DNA of 64,000 nt, the filler included, from Basidioascus undulatus (Eukaryota): the NCBI GenBank assembly GCA_000826855.1. It is 4 parts of 4 records of this genome, joined end to end, with 100 filler letters (N's around TTAATTAATTAA, not from the genome) between each part and the next. Parts side by side here need not be neighbours in the genome. Positions count along the whole stretch, not along the records: positions 49,459 to 64,000 come from JTLS01000721.1; 3 more parts are not named here. One strand, 5' to 3'. A model generated the notes under the pieces. That model was not told the origin of the DNA, made no database searches, and worked only from the letters and a program-made list of their open reading frames with translations. The position numbers were made by a program, and so were the translations under genes. Positions 16,406-64,000 of this stretch are shown here, in pieces. Numbering within the stretch: the first letter of the stretch is position 1; each line of letters begins with the position of its first letter.

Positions 16406-16505
16406 NNNNNNNNNNNNNNNNNNNNNNNNNNNNNNNNNNNNNNNNNNNNTTAATTAATTAANNNNNNNNNNNNNNNNNNNNNNNNNNNNNNNNNNNNNNN
16501 NNNNN
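16406..16505. other. Artificial contig spacer N44-TTAATTAATTAA-N44
   Basis: Exactly 100 nt; palindromic six-frame stop linker at 16450-16461. Confidence 0.98.
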
Positions 16506-32895: not shown

Positions 32896-32995
32896 NNNNN
32901 NNNNNNNNNNNNNNNNNNNNNNNNNNNNNNNNNNNNNNNTTAATTAATTAANNNNNNNNNNNNNNNNNNNNNNNNNNNNNNNNNNNNNNNNNNNN
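32896..32995. other. Artificial contig spacer
   Basis: N44-TTAATTAATTAA-N44. Confidence 0.98.
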
Positions 32996-44700: not shown

Positions 44701-46571
44701 CTGCGCTCCTTGTTCCCTTGCACCTGCTTCACTTCCCCTGTCATTGTCTTTTTTTGCTCGCACACATACCTTGAAAGGAAGCCAGAATGACATGAAGTGC
44801 GCAAACGCAGTACGACCGATCTACGGCAGCGCAACCTCGTCGAACGACCTGTACCGCTGCAGCCTGCAATCCTTCACAGAAAGCCCAAACCAGCGCAGAG
44901 GGGAATGCAGCTGGAGGACGAGGTGGCCCGGGCAGTACTGGGCAGTACTGGAACCACGATACCGACCAGGTCTTCAACATCTCCTTCCTGTTTCTTGCGC
45001 TTTGAGCCGCTGTGTGCATATGTTCTATCGAAGCCGGGCAGGCTGAAGCCAAGCACCGTGTCCACGGATCCGGAGACTGCGAGGTACAAGCCCTTCCGAG
45101 AGATGTTTACGTCTGCCCATCACAATATACAGATAGATCTTGTGTGGGAAACCGATGATATTACCACTGTACTCTGATTTCTCAGGGTGAAAGCGCCAGC
45201 CCATTTACCAATACGCTTGAGCCAGAACGCCTCACACTCGAATCCAGAAATTGTCCACACGATCTCCCACCACATTCCCAAAGGGAGAGAATGACAGCGG
45301 CACCAGCGTCAGGGCGAACTTCCGTCACTCCAGATTCTCGACGCGCAATAGGCGAACCCCTTCAGCGAGCGTTCTGCCACGCTTTATCACTCACCACGAC
45401 CACGCTCGACCCTGCTTGAGGCACCAAGGAACTCTTCAAAAGCACACCAGAATTGTCTGCGCCCCCTTAACTCCAAACAGTGATCCACGTAAGTCCAAAT
45501 ATTACGCAAGCCGCATGTCCACCCAGGAGTCGCAGCTGGCCGACCCTTATACGTCGGCGCCCCCTCTTGTCCATACCCACAACTATCACAGCTTCCAGAA
45601 CGTCCACATGGTCAAATTCTCCGGAGCGCCAGACCAGCAACCCTGGAAGTCGAGACGCACGCTCAACCGCCCCGCACAGTGCCCGAGCAGCCGACTCTGC
45701 AGCACCCGACCTCGCAGCCGCGAACGGACCGCCCGCCCAAGCGGAAGGTCTGCGCGTCTTTAGCACCAAGCTCTTACTTTGAAGTGACGGAGTTGGAGGG
45801 GGAGGCTTCCCCTGTGATTTGAAAGTCCCCCATCATCAGAATAGATCTCGCTGCGGGGCTGGATTGCCGAATAGCTCATCTATTTAAAACTCATACACGA
45901 GCCATAATTTTTTTGGCCTTTATACACAGTTTTTGGTCTTCAACTTCACGCTTGAGGTTGGCAGCCCGACGCGAAGCGGCAGATGTGAAGCTGAGAGCCG
46001 ATTTGGTTGTGTCACCGTGAATGAGTACCCTAAGGACTCGATCGTGAGGGCTCCTGATTAAAAATTGCATTATGAGAAAATCCCAAGGCTGGGCTAGATG
46101 GCACATCTTCCAAGAATAACGGCTCAATGAAAGGCAGCAAGGGCGCTCGTGAATGCCTCGGGCGAGAGGCAGCCATCCAACGGGGTCGATTTGAGCTGCT
46201 CCCACATCATGATTTTTTAATGCAATGGTTATTGAAATCAGTAACTCCAACCTTTTTAACACTCTATTAAATTTTGTCAAGGGCATCAGCGAAGATTGTC
46301 CTTTCAACTGGCATGTTGTGAGTTGCGCACGGCACATGCGATTATAGGACTGGGCACGATGAAGGACATACAAGTCAGTTTACGTAGACATTCAACAAAA
46401 GCGCTGAGAAGGGTCGCTGTCGCAGTGTCGTGAGAAGTTGCTAAGTAAAATTACACTCTTAGAGTCTTGTGGAGCTGTTGAGCCGGCCCGGGCAGTTCTG
46501 CGACCGTTTAAATATTAAAAAAGGTAGATGAATCAATTCCCAAGGCTGAAGGATACACCATTCGTTCCGTT

Positions 46572-47540
46572 TCACGAGCTACCGACTTTTCCTCCTCCCG
46601 GCAAGCAGAGGAAGACTGCAGCCTGGGCGACCGCGCAGCCGATGGAGGTCCAGGCAGGGAGATGTGCGACGAGAAGGTGGAAGGACAACGAGCTGTCAAA
46701 TCTGATTACAGCCGATATGGCGTAGTAGCGAGGTCGTGGGAGGAGGAATCCATGAGCGAAGAGTCGACGGAGACCCGGGAAACAGCAGGACCAACGGGTT
46801 GGAGCGGGCGGGGGCAGACGCCACACGTCCTCGCGAACCTGACGGTATGCTTGAGGTGAAATACCCAAATCCGCACCAGTCAGGCTGAACGCAACTGGAC
46901 ATACAGTGAACGAGACGAACCGATGAGCCTCGTGAGCCTGCGCTTGAGAACCAGCGCACCACCTGGCTCGAACCGGTACCCCCCGTCATTCTGAGCCCGC
47001 GGGTACTCTTTCGGAGAGCTCCATGAATGCCTGCACTTGTCCGCTGGCCCCCTCCAAGTACTTCTCAGCCTGCAGGACGATGTCCGCAGGCAAGGCGCAG
47101 AACGCCGCGTCCACTTCGGCTACGAACGGCGGGTTCGGGGCGAGATCCTCCTGGAACGCGGACTGGCAGTAGTGCTTCCCGAAGAGCACGTAGAAGGAGT
47201 CGAGGAGGGGCAGGACATAATTGAGAGGCTCTTCGAAATGCGCCGGATGGGACGGATAAACGCGTATGTCCCCTGGGTGGGCGCCATTCGTCAGCTGGGA
47301 AGAGGGGCTGTTGGGTGAAAGTACAAGCTCAGATGATCTGAAGGCCTTGTTTGTATGCACAGATGGGTAAGTGGGAAGCCGAGGGAGAGAACCGACGCAC
47401 ACTTGCCGCACGCGCTCCGTATTCAAACAAGTGACACCGCTGTTTTGGAACTTCGTGGCAAACACGTCGCAGGCGGGATTTGAAACACTCACTTGCCGCT
47501 CACAAGGAGCCTCTGAGGTCTGGCCTCTGAGGTCGCCATT
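46572..47540 (-). pseudogene. Hypothetical, probably degenerate gene
   Basis: Coding-like exon ~46990-47290 (HPGDIRVYPSHPAHFEEPLNYVLPLLDSFYVLFGKHY...) with stops in flanking segments. No family recognised. Confidence 0.3.
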
Positions 47541-47797
47541 GAAACAAAAGAAAGCCCTCGTGGATTTTCTGACAATCACTGACAGCGTGCAAGCCAGTCA
47601 GAAGTGTCCAGCTTGCGCCCGCATTTCTGTTGCCCATCAAAGCCCCTCTGCTCAAAGAAATGATATGCATAACACAACCCAACTACTAATAAAAAAGCTA
47701 ACGAATGAAAGAAAGCTTCCATGTCGTGTCGTGATCAAGCATGCAGAACGAATGCCATGAGAATCCATGCCGTCCGGTCATCCGGTCGTCCGGTCGT

Positions 47798-49358
<1,561 letters not shown>

Positions 49359-49458
49359 NNNNNNNNNNNNNNNNNNNNNNNNNNNNNNNNNNNNNNNNNN
49401 NNTTAATTAATTAANNNNNNNNNNNNNNNNNNNNNNNNNNNNNNNNNNNNNNNNNNNN
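49359..49458. other. Artificial contig spacer
   Basis: N44-TTAATTAATTAA-N44. Confidence 0.98.
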
Positions 49459-49932
49459 CCAATGAGGAACTCGATGCCCTCCATGAGCGCCTGTGGGTGG
49501 TGTGGGTATGGGAGAGGGGGGAGTGGGAACCCTGTGGGGAGGGGTCAGAAGGGGAGGATGGGGGAAGGAGGAGGGGACAAACAGGTCGTCGGATAGGAGG
49601 TCGTCCCAGGGTGCCTTTGGGGGCTTGCGACCCGCTACGAGCTCTGCCAGCCGGCCGGGCGTGGGGGCGGGGGTGGACTTGTCGCTGTCCGTCCCGGCCG
49701 TCCCTTCGTTCTCAGCACCTTCTACCCACACAACCAAACATGACGCGCAACTCACCCGGACCCGGAATACCCCGACCCCGAATCGGTAGAAGACAGCCGG
49801 GCGCTCAGCTGAGCGGGAACTGGGAGGAAGAAAGAAGGTAAGGATCCGATCGAAGCTCTTTTGGAGGCGGAGAGAGGGGGACGTGCTTGATGGACGCTTG
49901 GAGAGCGCGCGGAGGGCCTGGCGCGTAAGCAT
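49459..49932 (-). CDS. N-terminus of a putative mitochondrially targeted protein, truncated by contig end
   Basis: MLTRQALRALSKRPSSTSPSLRLQ is an Arg/Ser/Leu-rich presequence-like start. Family not identified. Confidence 0.4.
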
Positions 49933-51320
49933 TCTCGCTGCTCCAGAAGTGACTTGGACGGGAGGAAGGTAGAGATGGAGGACGAGGAGATGGCGGTGAG
50001 CGAAGGCGAGAAGGCAAGGAGTTGAGAGGCGGCGTGGTAAAGTTGCCTGTCGGCCGCCTGTGAGTTGTTTGGCGCTTTTGCGGATTCTGAGCGCTCGGAA
50101 GACCGGCCCGGTGCTTCGAGGAGCAACGTCCACCTCCTCAGTCTGCGTGATGCGTACCTTGACTGTTTCTAGACTACCGTCTTCCTCATCGCCATGGTCT
50201 CCCCTCCCGCTTTCCCTCCCCGCACCGCCGCCTTCGCCTCCCTCCTCCTCACCCCCTCCCAGCACGACCTCCACCTCGCGCACCTGCTCACCACCTCCTC
50301 CTCCCCTGCCCTCTCAGCATCCCCGTCCGAGGAATTCTTCTCCCTTCCCTCCGCGATCCACCACTCCTCCAAGGCACTACCGGATGACCAACCGCAGCTG
50401 CGCGTGAGGGGGTATGGGGAAGCGTGGGGCGTTTGTGGGGGGGAGGAGGGGGTGCTTGTTAGGTGGGATGAGGGGGTGGATTCTGTGGTGAGTCTTTTCC
50501 TTGAGGTGGAGTTGGAGAAAGCTGGGGGAGGGGTTGAGTGTTGATGGGGGAGGGTGGCAGTTGTTTGTGATGGTGAGGGTGGAACGGGCTGTGCGGGTGC
50601 CGCATGAGTATTGGGTAAGTCTACCATCCGGCCCTACTACACACGAAACACTCCACAGCATCTTACTCTGTCACTGTTCTCCCTTCAGACCCTAGCTTTT
50701 GACGGCAAGCTCCTCCCCGGCGCCTCAATAGCCGCAGACGTCTTCCACGCCGACCCACGGCATCGTTGCTCAGATCCGCTAGGTACCCACCTCCTCACCT
50801 CCTTCTCTACTATCATTAAGCTGGGGAAATGACGCTGATCGGAAGGGGAGCAGATGTCTCGCTCGTCCCCCTCTCCCAGGCGGACGAGTTCGAGGCGGAG
50901 TTTGGGACGGGCCACGGACACGGACATGGGGGCGCGGGTGGAGGATGTCCGTGTTGCAGGGGGACTTGATGATTGCGGACATTGAAGGTGAAGCTCATTC
51001 CCTCGGGGTTGGGATGGCTTACGCTGCTCCACATGCCTATTGACCGACCGATGCGCGCGGCATGGGAAAGCGCGACTGCAAGCTGCCATCCATTCACTCG
51101 CCCACCCTGCCTCTGATGCTACATTTCTCAAATGTCCAGTCGGAAGATAGAGTGCCATGATATCAATCAAGCTTCCCGTCGAACGTACGTGTATAGTCTC
51201 CCGACGAACCACATGTTCGGCCCCCTTGCGCCGCCCGCTCCACAACCACCACCCCGCGTCGACTCCCGCGCCCATTCGTACCGCCGCTTCGACTTCGTCT
51301 TTTCGCACAGATCACCCAAA

Positions 51321-52100
51321 ATGAATCTCGCCGAGCTTCCACACGACATTCACAAGCTCGTCATCGCGGAAGCGGGCGCGCCGTCGCACCATCTCTCGTA
51401 TACTCGGGACAGCGCGACCTTGGCATCGCTCTGCCTCGTCTCGCGCTCCTTCAACAACGAAGCAACGCCGAATCTCTATGGTTGGATCACTCTCCGCTGA
51501 GCGAATGCCATAGAAAAAGCTGTCGAGTACTCTGGAAGCGAGGCGCCTTCTCCACGGCCAGGTTCATTCGCTCCATATTTGCCCTTCGTTCGGGAGGACC
51601 GACCGCTTCAAGCGCTTGACTGAGCGAATGCACGCTCTGCGGCGCACTATTCTGAATTCTTCGGTCTCCGGGAGGTTTCACCTTTGAGGGTCGACTCTGG
51701 AAGAGTACGTGCACCCGCTTCTTCTCGTCGCTTGACGGTGGTGTCATTGGCGTGCTGTCGTCGCTCACGCAACTCACTCGCCTCAGACTCTGCAACCGCC
51801 AATTTGGTCGCACGGATAGCGTTCAATAGCTACTTTGTCCGACCAGTCTTACCCATGTTGCGCAGTGTTCGGTAGACATAACTGAGATTCGCAGCCGTGA
51901 TTGGCGGGACGGTCTCTCGCACTTCCTTGCCCATGCGCGGGCACTGCGCAAGGTGATCCTCGGTGGGCATTAACACTAGCCGTTATGAAAACAGGGAGGC
52001 TCACATGCGTGAGCTGAACGTGTGGTTACCGCAGCGCAGCGTTTAAGTGATCCTGTTCTCGCCCAGCGTCAATTCAACGACGGCAGCGGGCGGGATCATA
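51321..52100 (+). pseudogene. Degenerate F-box-like gene
   Basis: MNLAELPHDIHKLVI...LASLCLVSRSFNNEATPNLYGWITLR then premature TGA 51498-51500; LRR-like remnants (LTQLTRLRL, LPMLRSV) broken by stops. Confidence 0.65.
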
Positions 52101-52839
52101 GACCGGGTAGTGGATAGGAAGCTGTGGGATTCAGAAGAGTAGATTCAACGCAGTTCAAGGGCCTGTTCTCTGAACCGCACTGTTTTCCCATTTGACCATG
52201 TTCGAGAGTCGCAATTTGTGCGGGACGAGTGTGCCGAGTGTCTCCTCTTGTTCCCGAACCATTGCAGCAGTAAGGACAGGAAATCCCACACTTCCCCGGA
52301 TTCCGGAAGAGCACTATGCGAGGAAACGGACGCAAGTCTGCCTCCCGAGAACTTACTTTTGAACCTTTGTGCAGTCGTTTGCAGGCGGCGTTGTCAGCTG
52401 AGCGCTGAGCAGCACTGTACAGGCTTGCCACAGGCAACATTGAAGGTCATAATTTCAGGCGATTAAGTGTCTCCGCCTCTGTCTACTTAAGCAGACAGGT
52501 GGTTCAGATATCTAACAAACTGAAGCAGTGCTCGAAGGCCCAAGCAATCAGCAGTGGCCCTTTAATACGTCTCCCCGTGATATAAGTGCGCCAGAGGCAG
52601 TACACAAGTGCTCGTTTTGACCGATGCACAGAAGGTTCTACGTGAGCGCAAGCAAACCACACTCCATAAGCATTATCCAAGGAGAAGCATGTAGATCAAA
52701 GCATTAGAAGCTGTCGAGAAGAATGCAGCGTCCGCGTCCTCATTTTAAAACAGCCGGACAACTTGCTTAAAGAACGACCCTGTTCTAAAGTTTTGAAAAG
52801 ATTGGGAGTCAAATGAACAAAAACGGTTCCAGAACTTCT

Positions 52840-55500
52840 AACTGTAGTAGGCCGCAATCGCGGCTGCCTGCCCTACTCGGTACCCATTCGACAATGTTGG
52901 TTCTCTGGGGAAGCCGTAATTCCAAGCGACCTCACGGGCGGTTTTCCTGAGAGAGATGATCATTCCCACCCGGCTTCGAAGGGGATGAGATGTCCATCAA
53001 TCCTCCTTTGACGCCCCGCAGTGCATCAAGCTCTCTCGCTTTCCTTACGCCAGCCCTCTTCTCGCCCAGGCTAACCCTCTCTCAAATCTGTGTCCTCATT
53101 AGTTAACGCTGCGCTTGAGAATCCCCTCTCAGCGGCAGCCGCATCGCCAGCGCTGGGCGCCCTTCTCCCTCGACTTTATGAAGCGTCCACTCTGTCTGCC
53201 AAAGATGAGGGGATACGCTTGGTACAGGAAGATTTGATGGAGGAAGAGGGAACTTCCAGGTCGGCCGTCACCGCAAGGGTGTCAAAAGGACATACAGACG
53301 AGCTGTTAATACGGAGAACGGAATATGGGCGTACTGCTTGAATATGCACCATCCCCCAGCAAGAACAGGGGGCGACGTTACCCCCAGACTGTTCCAGAGA
53401 TATGCAGCCGACCTTAGCTGACTACCCCACTCGGCGTAAGGGGACCAGGGTATACCGTCGTGGTCGTCCGGAATGGGATGGTGCTCACGTTGCTCGACTG
53501 ATCCGCCGCGTTCTGTCGGCCTAAGCGTCGGGTTTGGGGAGGAGAAGGAAGGGGGCCGGACCGACACGAACTAAACCCCCGAGGATGGTTTCCCGCGTCA
53601 AGTCGTTATTGAGGCGACAGAGCTCAGTGATCTGCGCCTCGCGTTCCCGGTGCATCCTTGCCCCGCCCCTGACATCAGCATATGCGAGCATCAAAGTTAA
53701 TCTGCTCTGCGGATCGGAGTGCTCGCGCTCGAAGGCCATGGAACGACTCACAGAGCAGCTCCCTCGCCTCGATAGCCATCTCCAACAGCTTCTCCCGCCC
53801 ATGCTGCCACGCGTCCATCTCGCCCCCGCCCATCCTGAGGCCGAACTTCAGTCAATGTGCTGCTCCGCTTACAGACTTTGATCTGAAAGAACCTAAAATA
53901 TCTTGTTATTATGGCATGAACAAAAGCAGAAAGCGAACATGCGTCCATGCAGTGCGAACGAGCGTGGTATCATGCCAGCTGCTGCGTCCCAATCGTACGT
54001 CCCCTAACTTTCTCACTGCGAGGCGCTCATTGATCGCCTTGGAGAGAAAACAAGCGAAAACCCAAACGTGTACTTCCACACCCTCCACCCTTCCCCCGCC
54101 TGACCGGCGGCGATGTCGAACAGCCGACGCCTGCCTCTGTACGCTGTAGTGCTCCATAGTGTTGTTCAATTGTTGATGTCTTTCCACTGGATGCTTTCCG
54201 GTCGGTCCACAGTGTTTTCAAAACGATGAAGAGTGTGCTGCAAGCTATGATGCGGCCCGCCCTACTCGGTCCCATTCAACAAGGCTCGCACTCTGCCGAA
54301 GCCGCACAGCCAGGCGACCACACGGGCGGTTTCCTCAAGCGAGATAGACTATAATGGCAGCCCGAGTGCAAGAGAAGTGGATGCCCATCAACCTTCCTCC
54401 TAGACCTGTAGATCCCACGTACAAGCGGGGTCGTCGCCCTGGAAGTGCAAATAAAAAACTTCGGCAGCATGTCCAGGCACACTGGCCCACGGAACAACAT
54501 CAAGAACAGCCTGAAAACCTTCAATAAATCTGTCCTGGCTTGGTGACCTGAAGAATTTGGATCGTTTTATAAACCACAACTCGGAGTTCTGAGGCACTTA
54601 CTGAAGGGTTACTGGTTGCCGGCGAGAAGCGAGAGCGTGGAGTGCTACGCCTGTACGGTACGTGAAGATTGGCATAAGACGATAGAATGTGCGGGATAGA
54701 CGAGCTGAGGTGCTGCGAAAGTCCTCAAAGAGAGGCCGAGAAGGGATAGACACGGTTACAGAGTACAGTCCGGGATGGGATCGTCTGAAGATCAAGGGCG
54801 GCCTGCACTCGAGCGAGTCGGTTCTTGCAAGGCGTTTGAAAGCAGTGTCTGGAGGACGCTTGCTCCAAAAACATTCTACTGGTTATTAAAAGATTACCCG
54901 GGGCCTGAGTCTAGGGAGGGCGACTTTGCAGTATTGGTTGACGTGCACACGGCCGCGGGGCAATGCATCGCAGCTCAGCTTCGCTAGTTCTCTTCAATCG
55001 AGCAGTCTCCAGTGGACAATGCGCACAAATTAGCTGTCTGGAGCACATGTCCATCAGGGACACACAAAGCGGTTAAATTGCAAGTGCGGTTCCACCCACT
55101 GCACACCTCCGGACTGCGTAACGGACGTACTTGACCCTCACGCGTTGGATTGCTTTCCAGCAGACGCTGAACGGACTGAGTGGCCTGCTCACTATTAGAT
55201 GGAAACTAGGACTGTCCCACCCGAAATCGCTGTTGTCTGTGCTCCGCTGCACGGACTGGATTGAGATTTCTGCCCGCTCGCCATACTCCCCTGAAACTCT
55301 TCGATCAAGCTGCAATCATTGTGCCATAACGCACTGTCAGACACCCGAAGGCGGACGCAGCAACATCGTCCTCGCTCATCTCAACCGCGCCACCCGCGCT
55401 ATAGCGCTCAAAGCGATCTTACGTCACGTTCTGTTGACTACCAGCGGCGGTGGCGGCACCGCTCCTAGCATTGTCGTACTTTTAGTGGTGGAAACGGGCT
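52840..55500 (-). mobile_element. Lower-GC relic, possibly decayed tyrosine-recombinase element sequences (two partial copies)
   Basis: Diverged direct repeat ~52860-53020 / ~54250-54410 encoding LRKTAREVAWNYGFPRE..NGYRVGQAAAIA and LEETARVVAWLCGF; downstream TSTIEQHYG; many stops and frameshifts. Confidence 0.35.
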
Positions 55501-55624
55501 CATGAGGGCGGGCTGGTGGGGAGGAGGTGGATAAGCACCCCGCACGCCGCGAGGAAATGAGAAGTGAGGTTATTCATCAGGTCATCAAATCATAGTCGAC
55601 AGCAGTCTACACAGCCCAACGGTC

Positions 55625-58250
55625 CTATAGCGCGAACCCCTCCGTGTGCAGCCCCACCCCGCCCACGCGTGCCGCCCGCACAGGCTCAATGGCAGCCACG
55701 GCGTTCCGAACCTCTGCAACGAGCGCAGGCGGTCCAGCCGCCGCAATCCCGAGGCCGCCTCCGCCGGCCATCGGGGTCAAAGGCGCTGAGGTCGGGGACC
55801 CGCCACGCTCCTGCCCCTTCTCGAGCGACGAGTGGCTCGAACTCTTATTCATCTCGGCGTTGGACGCTGAGGCATCGGCGAGCGACTCGCGCACGAGCGT
55901 GCGGATATCCGGACGGTAGAGCGTCAGAGACGTGTGCGCGGAGAGGGTGTCGAGGCCGAAGAGCGGGGGCGTGGTCCTGTCGGGGCTGGCTAGGGGGAAG
56001 GCAGGCCCGCTGCTACCGTCGTCGTCGGGGAGGGAGACGTGCGAGGGAGCGGGGAGGCTGGAGGGGTTGGTGATGTAAATGTGGGTGGTTGCGTGTACGG
56101 CTGCGCACTTGGCGAGGAGGTCCAACGACCGGCGGAGAGCGGGCGCGTAGGCGCTCAGAGCGGCTGAGGAAGAGGAGGGGATGGTGGGTCAGCGTCCAGC
56201 GAAGCCGAAGCGGGTCAATGGATAAAAAAGGGAGAGGAGGGGCGACGTACGGTAGTTCCGGAGAATCAGCACCACCCGCACCCTCCTCATCGCCCCTCCG
56301 GCAGTGGCAAGGCGCCCAGCCAAGTCGTCCAGCGCGCCCAAAATAAACGTGACCCCAGACCCACCCGAGAGGAGCAAGACGTCCTCGAACTCCTCCAGGT
56401 CGATGGAGGGCCCGCCGTACGGCCCATCAACGATGACGCGCGATGCGCATGCCTTCTCCGTGCCCTCGCTGTCGGACTGCACGGCCTGGTGCAGCGCGCG
56501 GGTCCAGTCACCCGCGGAGTGGGCGTAGAGCGTCAGGCCGCGCGGGCGGGAGGATGCAAGAGCGGGAAGGGAGGTGAGGGGCGCGTTCGTAATCGTTAAA
56601 GGGTGCGTTTCGACTGCGAACATGGGTGGGAGTGGGCGCGGCTCGATCAGATTTCGTGTAGGAGGTCCAGGTAAGGTGAATGGCGTACTGAAGCGCGATC
56701 CGGAGAAGACGCGGACCCAGATGTGCTGTCCTGCGCGCCAGCCACTGTCGATATCTGAGGAGCGGAAGACAGTACATCTTTCAGCGCTGCCTTGCTTAAA
56801 GAGCATGCCGTTGTGCACGCTCACCGTGGACGTGGATCTGGGTCGTAGGTAGAGCTCAGCACGTTCCTTCAGAGGCCCTTCCTCATAGCGAACGGCTCAC
56901 CATCGTCACACCATCCGCAAGAGCAATAAGCGAAGCGTCCCGGACCCGGTAGCGCAGAAGGCGGAAGACGAGGTCAAGGGTGTAGAAGGCAATAATCGGG
57001 TACACAAACGGGCGGGAGTCTGTTCGCACTGTTTTAGCGGTGTACTCAAGCCACCCGAGGGCAGGAGGGAAGCACAACATACACGGCGTGTGGTAGCCTG
57101 CTCGCGCAGCGCAGCAAGTCAGTGTGGCGCTTCTGGACTAGCGAACGCTTTGGCTTACTGATAGCGATGATGAATCCGACGAATCCGAGAATGCTGTACG
57201 CGCTCAAGAGTTGATCATCTGAAGGTTATCAAGAGGAGACACACAGCGGAAGAAGTACTGAGAAGCCCAGAAGACCTGGTACGCGACCTTGCGCACAATC
57301 CGGAGCGAGCTGAGGACGATAACGCAGAGGAAGGCAAAGGCGGTGTATCCTTGACGTGCCTTGATGTTCTTGCTCAGTTGATCGCCGATTCCTCCCTATG
57401 TACAGGAGCGGAGTCAGTTGCGACCGATGGTGGTGTGGCTAGAGAGGAGAGGAAGCGAACGGTGATGTAGATGTGAGACCACAAGGAGCCGTGGACCACC
57501 TGTATAGGGAACATCAGCTTCGTTCGTTTTTATCGCAGAGCTCGAGTCTAGCTCACCGCCATGAGGAACAGGAAGCGACCCGTCCAGCGGTGCAACCAGT
57601 TGAGGCGGTCGTAGGACTTGCCGAGGATCACCTCGACGAGCGGCGCCTTAGAGCTCAAGACAAACACGAAGGGTAATTGAGAAAGCGCGAGGAATCCCGG
57701 GCGATTACCGGTCGTTGAGAGGTCGACGCCACCGAGCAGGAGGCAGGGGATGAGGGCGGCGACGTAAACAAGGACGACGGCGCATTGCGCGACCGTCAGC
57801 GGGAAGTACGCGCGGCGGCAGCAGTCCTGGACCTTTCGGTGCAGAAAGCGCGGCAGCGGAAGGGTGTAGAGCGTGGCGGTGTGGAAGAGCGCTTGGTGGT
57901 ACGCGAGGGGGCGAAGACGGCGAGGGGCGAGGGCAGGCCGCTGTGAAGCGCTGATGGCGCTCTCCTCCTTGCCGAGGGAGCGGTAGGCCGTTCCGTTGCT
58001 CTCGCACAGCAGCCAGCCTTGTAAGATCCGCTGGGTCTGAATCCGTCGTACGAGCGTCGGCGTCGCGCACAAGGCAAGTGCGGCGAGGCCGGCGGAATAG
58101 GCGTAGACGAGGTAGCGTCCGTACTGCGGGTCGACGACGTACGAGCTACCGATCGAGGATTGTTCAGCATTGTTCAGCTTCGACAATTCAAGAAAGAGGA
58201 GCGTACTTGTACGGCCTTAGGTGTGACGGAGGCAAGGGCGCGCCGGACAT
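55625..58250 (-). CDS. Ferric/cupric reductase (Fre/NOX-like flavocytochrome)
   Basis: NRPGFLALSQLP; heme His in YDRLNWLHRWTGR, VHGSLW, FWASHILG, SYHTP; WRAGQHIWVR; FAD motif HPLTIT; VDGPYGG; NADPH motif LLSGGSGVTF; AGPPALV; LHTEGFAL*. Confidence 0.93.
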
Positions 58251-58449
58251 ACTGGCTGCAATGCTGCGGCGGGGGATGATGGTGGTTGGAAGTCAAGAGA
58301 CACTGCCGGCTTCCCTCCGACTTTCACCTCTAACCAACCCTAAGTCTCGGTCCTGAATGATTTTTTTCTCAAAATCTTCGTTTGGCACATATTCACCCCT
58401 TTTGTTTCTGAAAGAGCGGTGGTCTTCGCGATGGTCACGGCGTAGGAGA

Positions 58450-58458
58450 CGAGCAAAA
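58450..58458 (-). promoter_or_regulatory. CuRE-like motif TTTTGCTCG about 200 bp upstream of the Fre gene (second copy GTTTGCTCG at 58632-58640)
   Basis: Matches the S. cerevisiae Mac1 element TTTGC(T/G)C(A/G). Confidence 0.45.
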
Positions 58459-58639
58459 CGGAACAGCGACAACCCAGTGTGCTTTCGGAGTGCAAGTGAA
58501 CACGGCAGACATTCACTCTTGAGTTCATTCAAATAGCGGTGGATCTCATCCCAATTCATAGTGAACGTAACATGCGTGGAGACGAAGCGAAACGAAACAG
58601 CGTCAACCCGGTTGCTTTTGGAGTGTGCGAGCGAGCAAA

Positions 58640-59644
58640 CTAGAGGACAGCGAGCGCGGAAGCAAGGAAGAGCCCAGAGGCAGCAACCATAGCGCCGCCG
58701 ATGGGGAGAGCGACCGCGCCGTTGTCTCCATCGTGGTCGTGGTCGGTCTCGGTGTCGTTGCCGCTCGAGTGCCCGGACGAGGTGCTGTTGCTGCAGGAGG
58801 GAACATCGGCACCCTCGATGAGTGTGACACTCGCGCACTGTGTCGGTCAGCCGGGTCAGCCGTCAGCCCTTCATGCGTAGAGAGTGGAAGATGGCTCACC
58901 TGGTAGAGGTCTAGAGGGGACGTTCGAGCGATGCAGTTCAGACAGTCAGCGATCAGAAAGCGAGCGTATGCATGTCGAAAGTGGGCTGTTGGTTCACTCA
59001 CTGCCATCGCCGCCGTCGTACCTGCGCATTGTCCCGCCCTGATAAGCTTGGCTCGCCCCTCGCAACGCTCAAGGAAGGATCCCACTCACAGGACCTGGAG
59101 CGTCGCGTCCGTGCCGTTCTGGACGCCGGGGATGTCGAGCGCACCAATGTTGACGGGCAGGCAGAACTCGCCGGCGCTGGTGACCGGCGACCAGTAGTTG
59201 ACGAACGGCAGCTGCGTGCCGTTGGACGTCGTGTTGAAGTCGGAGAACTCGGTCGGGTTTTGGTCGAGCGAGATCTGGATGGCGACTGCGTGGAGGGAGA
59301 GGAGAGGAACTCGTCAGATCGGATCTGGGAATGATATTGGATGCGGCGATGGAAAGAGGGGAGGGAGAGCGACGTACTGACGGCGGACGTGTGGTGGCTG
59401 TCGATCTTGAGGGTGGACTCGCCGAGTGGGAACGGCGTGCGCGTCGCGTTGTTGCCGGGTAAGCCGCCGCAGAAGTTGGACTCTGTCCCACCGAAACAAC
59501 AGTCAAATCTCGAGCGCACAACCAAAAGGGGGGAAACTGACCCTTCGCATCCTCGAAGCCCCACGACGTGGGGTAGTCGAGCGTGAAGTGGGCGGAAGCG
59601 GACGCAGCGAGGGCGGCAAGGGCGAGAGCAACGCGGGCGACCAT
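58640..59644 (-). CDS. BIM1: Bim1/X325-like GPI-anchored LPMO-like copper-binding protein
   Basis: Signal peptide ...ASASA then His1 (HFTLDYP); FCGG; [41 protein letters not shown]; Ser/His/Asp linker; hydrophobic GPI-type C-terminus. Confidence 0.88.
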
Positions 59645-59944
59645 GGCTGAGATGGGACTGTTCGTGACTGTTCGTCGTCGGAGGGGGAGGGAATGATGGA
59701 GGAAGGCAGAAGAGAACCCACGAGGCTGCTTGTTCTTTAAATCGGTCTGGTGGCGGAGGGCTGGGCCGGCCGTGGCTGGGGGTATGTATTCTGACGACTG
59801 ACGGGCCCTCCAATTCGAATGAAGTTTGCTGTGTCTCGGGCCTGGGACCTGAAACACGTGCGCCAAAGCCTGAAAATCACATTTAAAAATTGGCCAGATT
59901 TTGGTAGACCCGCCAGTTTACGCGCGGGCTCGCTCAAGGGCTGC

Positions 59945-59953
59945 TTTCGCTCG
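59945..59953 (+). promoter_or_regulatory. CuRE-like motif TTTCGCTCG upstream of the Bim1-like gene (also TTTGCTG at 59825-59831)
   Basis: The same 9-mer occurs in the Ctr promoter at a similar distance from the ATG. Confidence 0.35.
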
Positions 59954-60153
59954 CTTTCAGGAGGAAGACATCACAGTGCACTTTCAAACTCGCCTTTGCC
60001 GGGGTAGTGACGCCTGCACACTGAGTTATCTATTCAAGAATGAAATCAGGGTATTCGAAAGTTGACATGGTTATACAAGATGCGATGCGAAACAAGATGC
60101 GATGCGGGACCAAGCAACAAGATGGCACAAGGAAGACGACCACGGCTGCGAGA

Positions 60154-61064
60154 CTACATGATGTGCCCGCCGACTGCGAAGCGCCCGAACGCGACCTGCC
60201 GCCATCCAGCCCAATCAGCCTGCATTCACCTCCCTGCCCTTTGCAACAATGGACATACCTCCCCCGCCCCCATCCCGAGCAGAATCGAGATGAACCAGAA
60301 CGCCTGGCCCGTCCTGCGACGTTCCCGACCACCAAATCAGCCTTCTCTTCCTCTTCCTTGCTCCCTCGCAGAACATACATGATAGCAAGCATGAGCAGCA
60401 TCCCGATTCCGTACGTGACGATCGCCATCCCCCCACGCGCGAGGTCGTACTCGAGATTAAACGGCGGGGCCGAGCGGATATGTCCGTATGACGCGAGGGC
60501 CGCAAGGTGCCCCTGGGCGTCGTGCTCCACGCCCGCGTCCCGCTCTTTCGTTGAGAGCTCCTCGCGCTGCAGGTCGGCCAGGACGCGCTGCAGCCTGCGA
60601 GAAAAGAGGGTTGAGAAGGGCGCCTGGGGAAGGGGGAGGAAGAAAGCGCTCACTTAAGATTCCGACGCAGGTCGGCAGCCGCCCCCACGGCTGCGAGGAA
60701 GCGGGAGAAGACGGCGAGGAGGAAGAGCCCGATGCAGGCGCCGGCGAAGGCGCCTTTGCTCGTAGGCATCCAGGCCTCGAACCTATCCCCCCCAAAACCC
60801 CCGCACATCAGCCTGCATTCTTACACTGACTACCGTCGAAACGCACCAGAGCATGTCCGACCCGATGTTGGCGTGGAACGTCCTGCGCCCGCACGCACGT
60901 CAGTAAACACTTTGAGAGCGGTGGGGAGCGGAGTGGGAGGCACACATGCTCATCCCGTGCGAGGAGGAGCCAGAGCTGGAGCCCATGTCCATCCCGTCCA
61001 TTTGGTCGTGCGCGAGGGCGAGGGGGGCGAGCGAGCCGAGGACGATGAGGGCGAGCTCGAGCAT
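60154..61064 (-). CDS. Ctr-family high-affinity copper transporter
   Basis: Signal-like leader then HDQMDGMDMG...HGM Mets motif; MFHANIGSDMLWFEAWMPTSKGAFAGACIGLFFLAV; PPFNLEYDLARG; MLLMLAIM (MxxxM); GMGAGE (GxxxG). Confidence 0.93.
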
Positions 61065-61379
61065 TGCTGATAGACTGAGATTGGCTTGGCGGGAGAACGG
61101 GTGGCTGTCGATAGACAAGGAGATTCCTGGGTAGGACGAGAACGAGGAGGATGGAGGTGTTGTGTGTTGTGGGTGGGCGAACAGAAGGGAAGGAAGGGGG
61201 GCTCGCGGTCAGCAGCCAGCCTTCGCAGCCTGTTGCCCTCGCATTTCCAGGCAACCGGATGCAATTCACGCAGCACAAACAACACTCGCCTCGCCCTCGC
61301 GCCTCGCGTATTTTCCTTTTCCCCTAGCCCACACTCGTAAGACACAGAACATGTCATAATCTCCCATCCCGCACTCGAA

Positions 61380-61388
61380 CGAGCGAAA
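61380..61388 (-). promoter_or_regulatory. CuRE-like motif TTTCGCTCG about 320 bp upstream of the Ctr gene
   Basis: Plus strand reads CGAGCGAAA; identical to the motif in the Bim1-like promoter. Confidence 0.35.
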
Positions 61389-62851
61389 ATGATGCAGAAT
61401 CACGTCCTGCACGCAGTGTGGAAGTGAAAAGCACATGCATGGTCCTTCGCCCTTCTCGCCACCTCCCCCCGCCGGTCCACCTCGAAAACACGCGTCTACA
61501 GGCCCCCAAAAATCCGCAATCCTTCCAAGAGATCCAAAATTCAGCGGCCCCGCACAGTCACCCCGTGCCGCCCAGCCTTTCGATATGCATGCGCGTGCGC
61601 AAATGCGGATCGATGAGCGATCGGGACAACCGAGTATGTGGGACAAGGCGGGACGAGCACGGAACGATAGGCAACAGGTTCTCATTGGTCCACGTCGAGC
61701 GAAGAGCAGGGGAAGATGGTTCCGACAGCGGCCGCGTGACGTGCTCATAGCGAGGGCGGGGCGCCGTCGGTTAACGTCGGCCGATGAGCAGGGGACATGG
61801 GGAGAGTGGCAAATATGGTGTGCCAGTGGAGGGGATGGGAGAGAGGGGGTGGCGGCCTTGTGAGGGGAAGGGGGATCGGAATGTCGGCGGTCAGACGTTC
61901 GGGGAGAGAGAACGTGGATGGAAGGATGGTATTGATGGTGTCGAAGTGTGAATGCGAAAGCGTATGATCGAGGTACTGTTGATTAGCCGCGAGGAGTAAT
62001 GAGGATGATTTATCGGAAAAGATAATGAGGATAGCATCGGGTGAAATCGAATGAGGATGAGCAAGTGAATGCCGATAGGGTCGACAGCCAGCGAAAGCAT
62101 GAATGAGAAGTACGATGAGCGAGATTGGATCGAAGTCAGTGAGCTCAAGTGACGAGGGAGGGAAAGTCCACGACGCCCTCACCAACTCCGCCGACGACGA
62201 GACGGCCATCTTCTCGCAGCGAAGCCGCCCAACCCACGAAACAACCACCCACAGTGCCTGCCTGCAGTGCTTTCACCTCGACAAACCGACTGAAAGACCG
62301 GCGAGCTTCGAGCGAGAAGGGAGAGCAGGGGCTCATGGGAGAAGCAGGAGAGGAGATGGTGGCGGAAGAAGAACGAGGAGCAGAGGGGGGAGTTTGGGCG
62401 CTCTTGCGCGGTTTGCGCGAAGTGAGCGCCGCAGCGGGCGAGGGTGCGCGGTTTCTGCGAGGGTACTAGGGATTAGGTAGGGAAAATAGCACAAGAGATG
62501 AGCGGGCGCATTTTGGCTCTGTCGCGTTGAAATGCGCCAAACAACCAGGTTGTTCTCTTGAATAATTCACTTGAATGTTCATCAGTTCATATCAATAAAT
62601 GTCAGACAATTGAATCAAATATGAGAGTGTCGAAACAGCAACGTCCGCCGATCTCGGCGATAACGCACACGAAAATACCCGTCACCGAAAGGCAGGCAAC
62701 CTGCCTCCGACTCAGTCGCCTTCTCGCTTCCTCCCTGCCATTCTCCAGTCCGTTTCGCTCTCCATTTCTTTGTCCTCCCTCCCAAGTACCTGCCAGCCGT
62801 CCGCTTCCCCTCTCTCCCACTCCCGCCGCCGCCCGGCTCCCGAAACCCACC

Positions 62852-63189
62852 ATGCTCCGCTCCTTCGTCGCCTCCCTGCGCCCCCTCGTCCTCCGCGCCC
62901 GTCCTTCCACCCTCCTGCCCCCCGCCCCTACCGCTCACGCCCACGCCCACGCGCCCTCCCTGCGGCCATCCGCGCACGCGACCGCGCTCGCGCGGGGGAT
63001 GAAGGTGCGCTCGTCGATCAAGGCGATGTGCGACGGGTGCTCGATCGTCAGGCGCAAGGGCCGGTTGTATGTCATCTGCAGTAAGGATCCGAAGCACAAG
63101 CAGGTGAGTCTGAGCGGGGAGGTGGTGAGGGGAGGGGGGGGATGAGAGGCTGATGAGCGCGGGGGATGCGGGGGTAGCGGCAAGGATGA
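62852..63189 (+). CDS. RTC6: Mitochondrial ribosomal protein bL36m
   Basis: Presequence plus [38 protein letters not shown]; intron 63104-63177. Confidence 0.95.
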
Positions 63190-64000
63190 GAAGTGGACGG
63201 CTGGGCTCTGGGACGGGGAGGAGGCGAGGGCCAGGCGGTGTTGGGCGGAGGAGCAGGATGGTGGGTCTTGTGAGGGCACTGAGGCCTGGAGGGAGTCTTG
63301 TGGCTCGGGTTTATGGGTACATCTCCACCCTTCATGCACGGCGGCGAGTCTTCGATCAGCTGTGCAAGGCGCTCGAGGCGGCCAAGGAGAAGTGGGACGG
63401 CGCGATGGAGGTGCTTGATGAGGCGAAGAGTTCGATCGAGGACGCTCTTAGCGTGGGCGCAGCATGGAAGGACACCTATCAGGTTGTCGGACCTGCCAGA
63501 TGAGGCGGACGGAAACTGCGTCCGCAGCTTTCGCAGGCCCCCAAAGACCCTGAAGAGACGAACGCTCCATCAGACGTCTACTGGTTCACAAATCCTTCTC
63601 GGCGTACCCAGCTCCCCGGGATCATGCGTCGCACCGTGAGGTCGACCGCTGTCGCGCCCGCTGTCGAGATAGACGGGCTGTGCGGATTCCAGACCTTTGT
63701 CTGTTCCCGATCCTCGGAGTGGATCCAGCTCCGAAGCCGGCACCTGAAATTCGGCGCCTGGAACCGTTCTGCTCTCTAGCGTTAAGTGGGAAGACGGCAC
63801 CATCTGCGTAGAAGGTCTCCGTCTCCGAACGCCCAAGCCACGACCCAGTGCATATACGATCGGTTCGCCGGAACGCAGCGCCAGCGTTCAAAGCGGTACC
63901 ACTCCTAACTACGACAGCTCCCGCTCACAGCGTCCCACGTACAACACCCCCCTCCCTCTCCCTCTAAACGAAGCACCCCCCCCCCCCCCCCCCCCCCCCC

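Follow-up and report, generated by a model that had tools for sequence, protein, structure and literature searches.

The basidiomycete Basidioascus undulatus (assembly GCA_000826855.1) carries, on the minus strand of a 64,000-nucleotide stretch of DNA made of joined assembly pieces (the window), three intact, co-oriented, intron-rich neighbouring genes at positions 55625-61064. Along that strand they encode, in this order, a Ctr copper transporter, a BIM1/X325-like protein and a Fre metalloreductase (genes called CTR, BIM and FRE here). We think it probable, at roughly 0.6, that the locus is a true gene neighbourhood for high-affinity fungal copper uptake, one that has been kept together by joint control under copper limitation. 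This reading is built on the gene content of the locus, the family features and metal ligands of the three products, the adjacency of the genes and the recurrence of the neighbourhood in other fungal DNA, all of which are observed. In the mechanism we envisage, the putatively glycosylphosphatidylinositol (GPI)-anchored BIM1/X325-like protein would capture Cu(II) at the cell surface with its histidine brace and the Asp of a GGDG loop; the Fre flavocytochrome would carry electrons from cytosolic reduced nicotinamide adenine dinucleotide phosphate (NADPH) through flavin adenine dinucleotide (FAD) and two hemes to the outside and there reduce Cu(II) to Cu(I); and a Ctr trimer would import Cu(I) through its Met-lined pore. 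The linkage would be kept because a factor of the Mac1 or Cuf1 type switches the genes on jointly when copper is limiting. The order of the hand-off between the three proteins is one that we infer.

Three genes and the families of their products

Gene models were assembled manually, with splice signals and reading frames as guides (standard code), and were checked by translation. The CTR, BIM and FRE frames are each open from ATG to stop, and the 20 introns across the three genes all have GT..AG ends and are 57-92 nt long. The CTR stop codon is separated from the BIM ATG by 509 bp, and the BIM stop codon from the FRE ATG by 389 bp; an earlier sequence-only reading had described three intact, co-oriented, adjacent genes with gaps of about 510 and 390 bp on one contig, and this description agrees with the models and is good for the cluster itself, as all three genes lie inside the piece at 49459-64000. 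The models contain micro-exons of 11, 13, 15 and 20 nt, which are backed by two alignments. Pfam was run exon by exon on 13 unspliced open reading frame (ORF) pieces, not on spliced proteins, and matched the expected families in six of the 13. These matches, with alignments and motifs added, uphold the three family assignments of the sequence-only reading, which had proposed to confirm them with hidden Markov models: Ctr, Ferric_reduct and FAD_binding_8 scored above their cut-offs and BIM1-like_dom at its cut-off, while NAD_binding_6 fell below.

The CTR gene (61064-60154, minus strand) has six exons (61064-60946, 60882-60847, 60782-60654, 60594-60379, 60313-60259 and 60195-60154) and encodes 198 amino acids (aa). 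The Ctr family (PF04145) was matched at 39.1 bits (cut-off 25.3) by the ORF at 60650-60820 and at 17.8 bits by the ORF at 60030-60653. Ctr proteins are recognised by MxxxM in membrane helix 2, GxxxG in helix 3 and a Met-rich outer N-terminus, and the spliced translation has MLAIM (MxxxM), GMGAG (GxxxG) and the Met-rich N-terminal stretches MDGMDMG and HGMSM. Its best tblastn segment against the Ctr of metagenome locus L002 (below) is 64% identical. Exon 1 (61064-60946) also encodes a signal-like, apparently cleavable N-terminus with a His straight after the cleavage point (..LALA|HDQMDGMDMG); a similar ..A|QHVH start is present in the L002 Ctr (L002:2099-2404) and at the N-terminus of the database protein P0050. 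Such a free N-terminal His could give the Ctr outer domain Cu(II) binding of its own.

The BIM gene (59644-58640, minus strand; exons 59644-59542, 59482-59378, 59285-59090, 59021-59002, 58910-58900 and 58837-58640) encodes 210 aa in six exons. The ORF of exon 3 alone matches BIM1-like_dom (PF20238) at 27.0 bits, just reaching the cut-off of 27. A phmmer search with this exon (64 aa) against 1.84 billion representatives returned 69 proteins at E<=0.001, the best of them 52-56% identical; PF20238 is present in 32 of the 37 of these proteins that were scanned (at or above cut-off in 29), and the remaining five are repeat-rich or unmatched. The spliced protein aligns end to end with 15 family members. 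In this alignment the micro-exons restore the conserved block YDGGDGNLYQC, His65 sits in the conserved column of the second His, the family cysteines and the GGDG loop with its Asp are kept, and the C-terminal part is a linker rich in Ser, Thr and Asp followed by a hydrophobic tail of GPI-like type, as in other members. The mature N-terminus is ...ASA|HFTLDYP, so that His19 is the first residue after the signal peptide (cleavage judged by eye). One family member, P0054, matches the LaX325 structure PDB 6ibh at 1.2e-23; LaX325 (PDB 6ibh, 6ibi and 6ibj) is the solved structure of the X325 family, and the window protein is like it in that it aligns across the whole domain with the family set that contains P0054. 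The Asp on the Gly-rich loop is the third copper ligand in this family (PMC7529816; statements about this and the other papers cited refer to the excerpts of them that were available).

The ligand set also bears on a different account of the locus, namely that the X325-like protein is a redox-active oxidase or peroxygenase resembling lytic polysaccharide monooxygenases (LPMOs), that Fre powers it on a wall or extracellular substrate and that Ctr supplies or recycles its copper. The fold and the copper site are LPMO-like, LPMOs require an external reductant, and Bim1 reacts with ascorbate while CopC is inert (PMC7529816, PMC7924993). For X325 members, however, no activity on polysaccharides has been detected (PMC7924993), the Asp ligand fills a site that is open in LPMOs (PMC7529816), and induction by copper starvation, as seen in related systems (below), suits uptake better. 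We regard this account as improbable.

A further database protein may involve both gene families. P0050 (442 aa) has a BIM1-like domain at residues 259-398; it has no significant match to the window Ctr, and its N-terminus matches the first Ctr exon of L002 modestly (E 8e-5, from one pairwise comparison). Probably a gene prediction from another organism has here fused an upstream Ctr with a BIM1-like gene, and the protein is taken as a lead only.

The FRE gene (58250-55625, minus strand) is the longest of the three, with 11 exons (58250-58207, 58145-57557, 57499-57461, 57395-57259, 57193-57159, 57097-57083, 57019-56901, 56837-56825, 56754-56689, 56613-56251 and 56163-55625) and 652 aa. Ferric_reduct (PF01794) was matched at 40.4 and 27.4 bits (cut-off 28) and FAD_binding_8 (PF08022) at 37.4 bits (cut-off 22). 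Fre proteins have two helices that carry two pairs of heme His, and motifs of the HPFT type for FAD and of the GPYG type for NADPH; the window protein has H-x13-H twice (the four heme His), HPLT and GPYG, all in columns that are conserved with six other Fre ORFs from metagenome loci. Against those six ORFs there are zero indels at the micro-exon junctions, and the C-terminal exon aligns to the NAD-domain end of all six.

Recurrence of the neighbourhood in other fungal DNA

Is the arrangement peculiar to the window? Metagenome contigs were scanned with a six-sequence BIM1-like alignment, which gave 51 loci (numbered L001 and so on) that fall into 34 groups at >=90% nucleotide identity, and neighbours were sought in the six-frame ORFs of these loci with iterated profiles from the three window proteins. 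Within the DNA available for each locus, Ctr and/or Fre were found in 18 of the 34 groups (in 13 of the 34 at Pfam's own cut-off); they adjoin the BIM1-like gene in 17, the exception being the L006 group, where 5.4 kb separate it from the Fre. A Pfam recheck of 28 neighbour ORFs confirmed the expected family for 26; the other two are short fragments at contig ends. Fre was detected in 11 groups plus two fragments, and Ctr in five groups plus four weak or cut fragments. All three genes are present in L002 (Fre-, Ctr+, Bim+), L016 (Ctr-, Fre+, Bim+) and L041/42 (Fre-, Bim+, then Ctr+ 3.3 kb on), and in L047/48 with a weak Ctr. The co-localisation survey that the sequence-only reading had suggested, carried out here on metagenome contigs, thus finds that the neighbourhood recurs, and linkage of BIM1-like genes to Ctr and/or Fre is frequent, not universal.

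A tree of 32 BIM1-like sequences contains two well-supported clades. Clade A (12 rows, support 100/99) includes the window protein, and in its rows L001, L002, L008, L010 and L027 a Ctr lies directly upstream on the same strand, as it does in the window; a sixth locus with an upstream same-strand Ctr, L024, is outside the tree. Clade B (20 rows) holds Fre-linked loci in several orientations. BIM1-like and Fre genes stand side by side in both deep X325 clades, often without Ctr. Two smaller features of these loci were also seen. A tandem pair of BIM1-like genes about 1.2 kb apart lies downstream of Ctr in L012, L027, L028 and L029 (which together with L031 make up one group), and clade-B BIM1-like ORFs, for instance L048:9716-10570 and L051:3324-3905, run beyond '...DGILYQ' into unrelated residues, the end of their homology coinciding with the intron after NLYQ in the window gene, a position that may be common to both deep clades. 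Among the Fre ORFs of the metagenome loci, some are without exon 1.

An account that does without copper uptake is that the adjacency arose by chance or is purely historical and that the Fre is an iron reductase. Fre families are mostly iron-linked, and the window as a whole holds Mac1-type octamers at about the expected number (below). Set against this are the recurrence in 18 of 34 groups and our own estimate of chance adjacency, which is well under 1% when calculated from the gene counts of Pseudogymnoascus destructans (10 metalloreductase and 2 CTR genes; PMC13208438, PMC12113139) with about 9,000 genes assumed; in the light of the survey the linkage exceeds chance. There is also no GATA site in the 389-bp FRE promoter, a weak point, as 1.3 would be expected. 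We consider this account highly improbable.

A more serious alternative is that the neighbourhood is regulatory only: the three would all be genes of copper limitation that common promoters or chromatin hold together. Fre would supply Ctr by reducing Cu(II) that is free or only loosely bound, and the BIM1-like protein would act alongside, buffering copper or serving in the cell wall, and take no electrons from Fre. The order and orientation of the genes vary among the loci (Fre-/Bim+, Fre+ then Bim+, Bim+ then Fre+, Ctr+ then Bim+), and co-regulation therefore fits better than a fixed physical unit. Fusarium has Ctr/Fre pairs that include no BIM1-like gene (PMC11563359), and BIM1/Cbi1 has cell-wall roles as well (PMC9258870). 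The commonest clade-B pattern, however, is a BIM1-like gene with Fre and no detectable Ctr (L014, L026, L032/34, L043, L046/49/51 and L050), and this is hard to reconcile with a Fre that serves Ctr alone. This alternative is unlikely in our view, though it deserves to be kept in mind. Within the copper-uptake reading the same BIM1-like/Fre pairs, because they are frequent, favour a Fre that reduces copper while it is still bound. We put forward tentatively, from the gene arrangements, the narrower proposal that a dedicated Fre might be the missing partner that reduces Cu(II) bound by the histidine brace to Cu(I) for Ctr, and that the trio might be an old modular fungal cluster.

Promoter motifs, weak points and genomic surroundings

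Promoters were scored for the Mac1-type copper-response element TTTGC(T/G)C(A/G). Of the window's 10 matches (64 kb), two fall inside the 389-bp FRE promoter: one copy of TTTGCTCG at 58632-58639 (minus strand; -389 of the FRE ATG and directly after the BIM stop codon) and a second at 58450-58457 (minus strand; -207). A variant of the element, TTTCGCTCG, lies at 61380-61388 (minus strand; -324 of the CTR ATG) and, inverted, at 59945-59953 (plus strand; about -308 of the BIM ATG). The core of the Fusarium Mac1 site, TGCTCA, occurs 46 times in the 700-bp upstream zones of the metagenome-locus genes where 15.3 are expected and stands at the top of the 180 hexamers with that composition, a statistic that is drawn from related loci and measured against their remaining sequence, coding DNA included. 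Elsewhere, on another piece of the window, there is a further close pair of Mac1-type octamers, TTTGCTCG at 44753-44760 (plus strand) and TTTGCGCA at 44798-44805 (minus strand), 45 bp apart; no Pfam family was matched by the ORFs near it.

A number of observations weigh against a copper-uptake neighbourhood held together by joint control. On the regulatory side, the octamer is not enriched in the window as a whole (10 found, 11.07 expected); the CTR and BIM promoters have only the variant TTTCGCTCG, which was picked after the sequence had been viewed; TGCTCA is absent from the CTR, BIM and FRE promoters; and copper-dependent regulation in B. undulatus is itself something that we infer. On the protein side, NAD_binding_6 (PF08030) reached only 16.0 bits on a partial exon ORF, below its cut-off of 22.2, the C-terminal 'CGP' of Fre reads AGP in exon 11 (56163-55625; Cys to Ala), and the conserved 'QCAD' of the BIM1-like family reads QCAS in exon 6 (58837-58640; Asp to Ser). 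As to recurrence, neither Ctr nor Fre was found in 16 of the 34 groups; 11 of these are shorter than 3.2 kb, and L018-20 (up to 16 kb), L017 (6.4 kb), L004 and L035 have room enough for such a neighbour and show none. The clade-B loci include many close relatives from few sample series, and the number of independent lineages is therefore much smaller than 34. Finally, in Cryptococcus neoformans it is CNAG_07702 rather than BIM1 that lies upstream of CTR1 (PMC2932688).

The window is divided into four pieces by artificial linkers (N44-TTAATTAATTAA-N44) at 16406-16505, 32896-32995 and 49359-49458, and genes of different pieces therefore have no demonstrated neighbourhood. The piece with the cluster ends at the last of these linkers, so the real genomic context of the cluster is 49459-64000 only. 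On the Fre side, where the sequence-only reading saw decayed DNA, ORFs of at least 50 aa in 47000-55620, which includes the ~6.2 kb from the linker to the Fre stop, gave no Pfam match, which fits decay without proving it. This domain-free DNA downstream of Fre contains a 75-nt direct repeat, 75% identical, at 52883-52957 and 54271-54345. In the opposite direction, the first gene that can be recognised beyond CTR, upstream of it, is the ORF at 62531-63142 (plus strand), which has a ribosomal protein L36 domain at its end (Pfam 9.9e-20) after a long Pro/Ser/Ala-rich leader and resembles a mitochondrial L36 gene.

Relation to known systems and significance

The closest published counterpart is in Aspergillus fumigatus, where chromosome 6 carries side by side Afu6g02800 (a putative GPI-anchored protein), Afu6g02810 (a copper transporter) and Afu6g02820 (a metalloreductase); the three rise jointly when the fungus meets neutrophils and were removed in a single deletion in 2008 (PMC2481287). 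Afu6g02810 is now named CtrA2 (PMC6514546, PMC8425704). The P. destructans protein VC83_07867, which is BLP3, a BIM1-like protein (PMC12113139), has AFUA_6G02800 as its best match in Swiss-Prot (PMC5810475), and because of this match the 2008 trio can itself be read as BIM1-like/Ctr/Fre. The same three kinds of gene thus stand side by side in both fungi; A. fumigatus differs in being an ascomycete and in its locus-tag order (GPI protein, Ctr, Fre, as opposed to Ctr, BIM1-like, Fre on one strand in the window). The authors of 2008, in the excerpts available, read the trio as iron or oxidative-stress genes, the BIM1 family being then unknown to them.

In P. destructans the BIM1-like gene BLP2 (VC83_03095) and the Fre7-like metalloreductase gene VC83_03096 have consecutive tags and are both induced by the chelator bathocuproine disulfonate (BCS) at the RNA and protein levels (log2 3.57 and 3.59, respectively; PMC13208438, PMC12113139), and their A. 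fumigatus homologues are XP_747797 and XP_747795 (PMC13208438). Unlike the window, no adjoining Ctr is reported there, the tags of CTR1a and CTR1b being distant; we found no remark on the adjacency of BLP2 and VC83_03096 in the available parts of the P. destructans papers. In Fusarium oxysporum the promoters common to ctr3/fre9, to ctr1b/fre12 and to fre10/FOXG_02393 are targets bound by the copper-limitation factor Mac1, FOXG_02393 being labelled 'uncharacterized' (PMC11563359). Here too Ctr and Fre genes are paired, but the pairs are divergent rather than co-oriented and no BIM1-like gene is named in the excerpts. FOXG_07771, which lies beside ctr3/fre9, was considered as a BIM1-like candidate and rejected, as it is a SAM-domain protein (PMC11563359). 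The C. neoformans Bim1/Cbi1-Ctr1 system also joins a GPI-anchored X325 histidine-brace protein to a Ctr importer under copper limitation, and the window protein shares its ligand set; no report that these genes are clustered was found in the literature searched, which did not include the Bim1 primary paper.

The shared copper-acquisition function that the sequence-only reading had proposed is accordingly supported by linkage in 18 of 34 groups, by the co-induction of VC83_03095 and VC83_03096 under copper starvation and by the joint response of the A. fumigatus trio to neutrophils. Its remark that it knew of no described cluster with a Bim1/X325 gene is overtaken by the literature: the A. fumigatus trio was published in 2008, adjacent and deleted as a unit (PMC2481287), with a GPI protein among its members that can be read as BIM1-like (PMC5810475, PMC12113139), and a claim of first description therefore fails. 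No description that names a Ctr/BIM1/Fre cluster as such was found in the literature searched, from which the Bim1 and X325 primary papers were absent. The B. undulatus cluster is a further case of an under-recognised fungal copper-uptake neighbourhood that was already in print without being recognised, and what its sequence adds is the co-oriented arrangement and a different X325 clade.

To our knowledge, no reductase partner has been named for the transfer of copper from the histidine brace of Bim1/Cbi1 to Ctr1. The cluster, together with the recurrent adjacency of BIM1-like and Fre genes, directs attention to a single Fre in each genome as candidate reductase, and with such a candidate in hand the question of how the copper is released becomes one that straightforward genetics and biochemistry can test. 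For annotation a working rule also follows, that a small secreted GPI protein whose gene neighbours a Ctr or Fre probably serves in copper capture; A. fumigatus Afu6g02800, deleted in 2008 before its link with copper capture was known, is an example.

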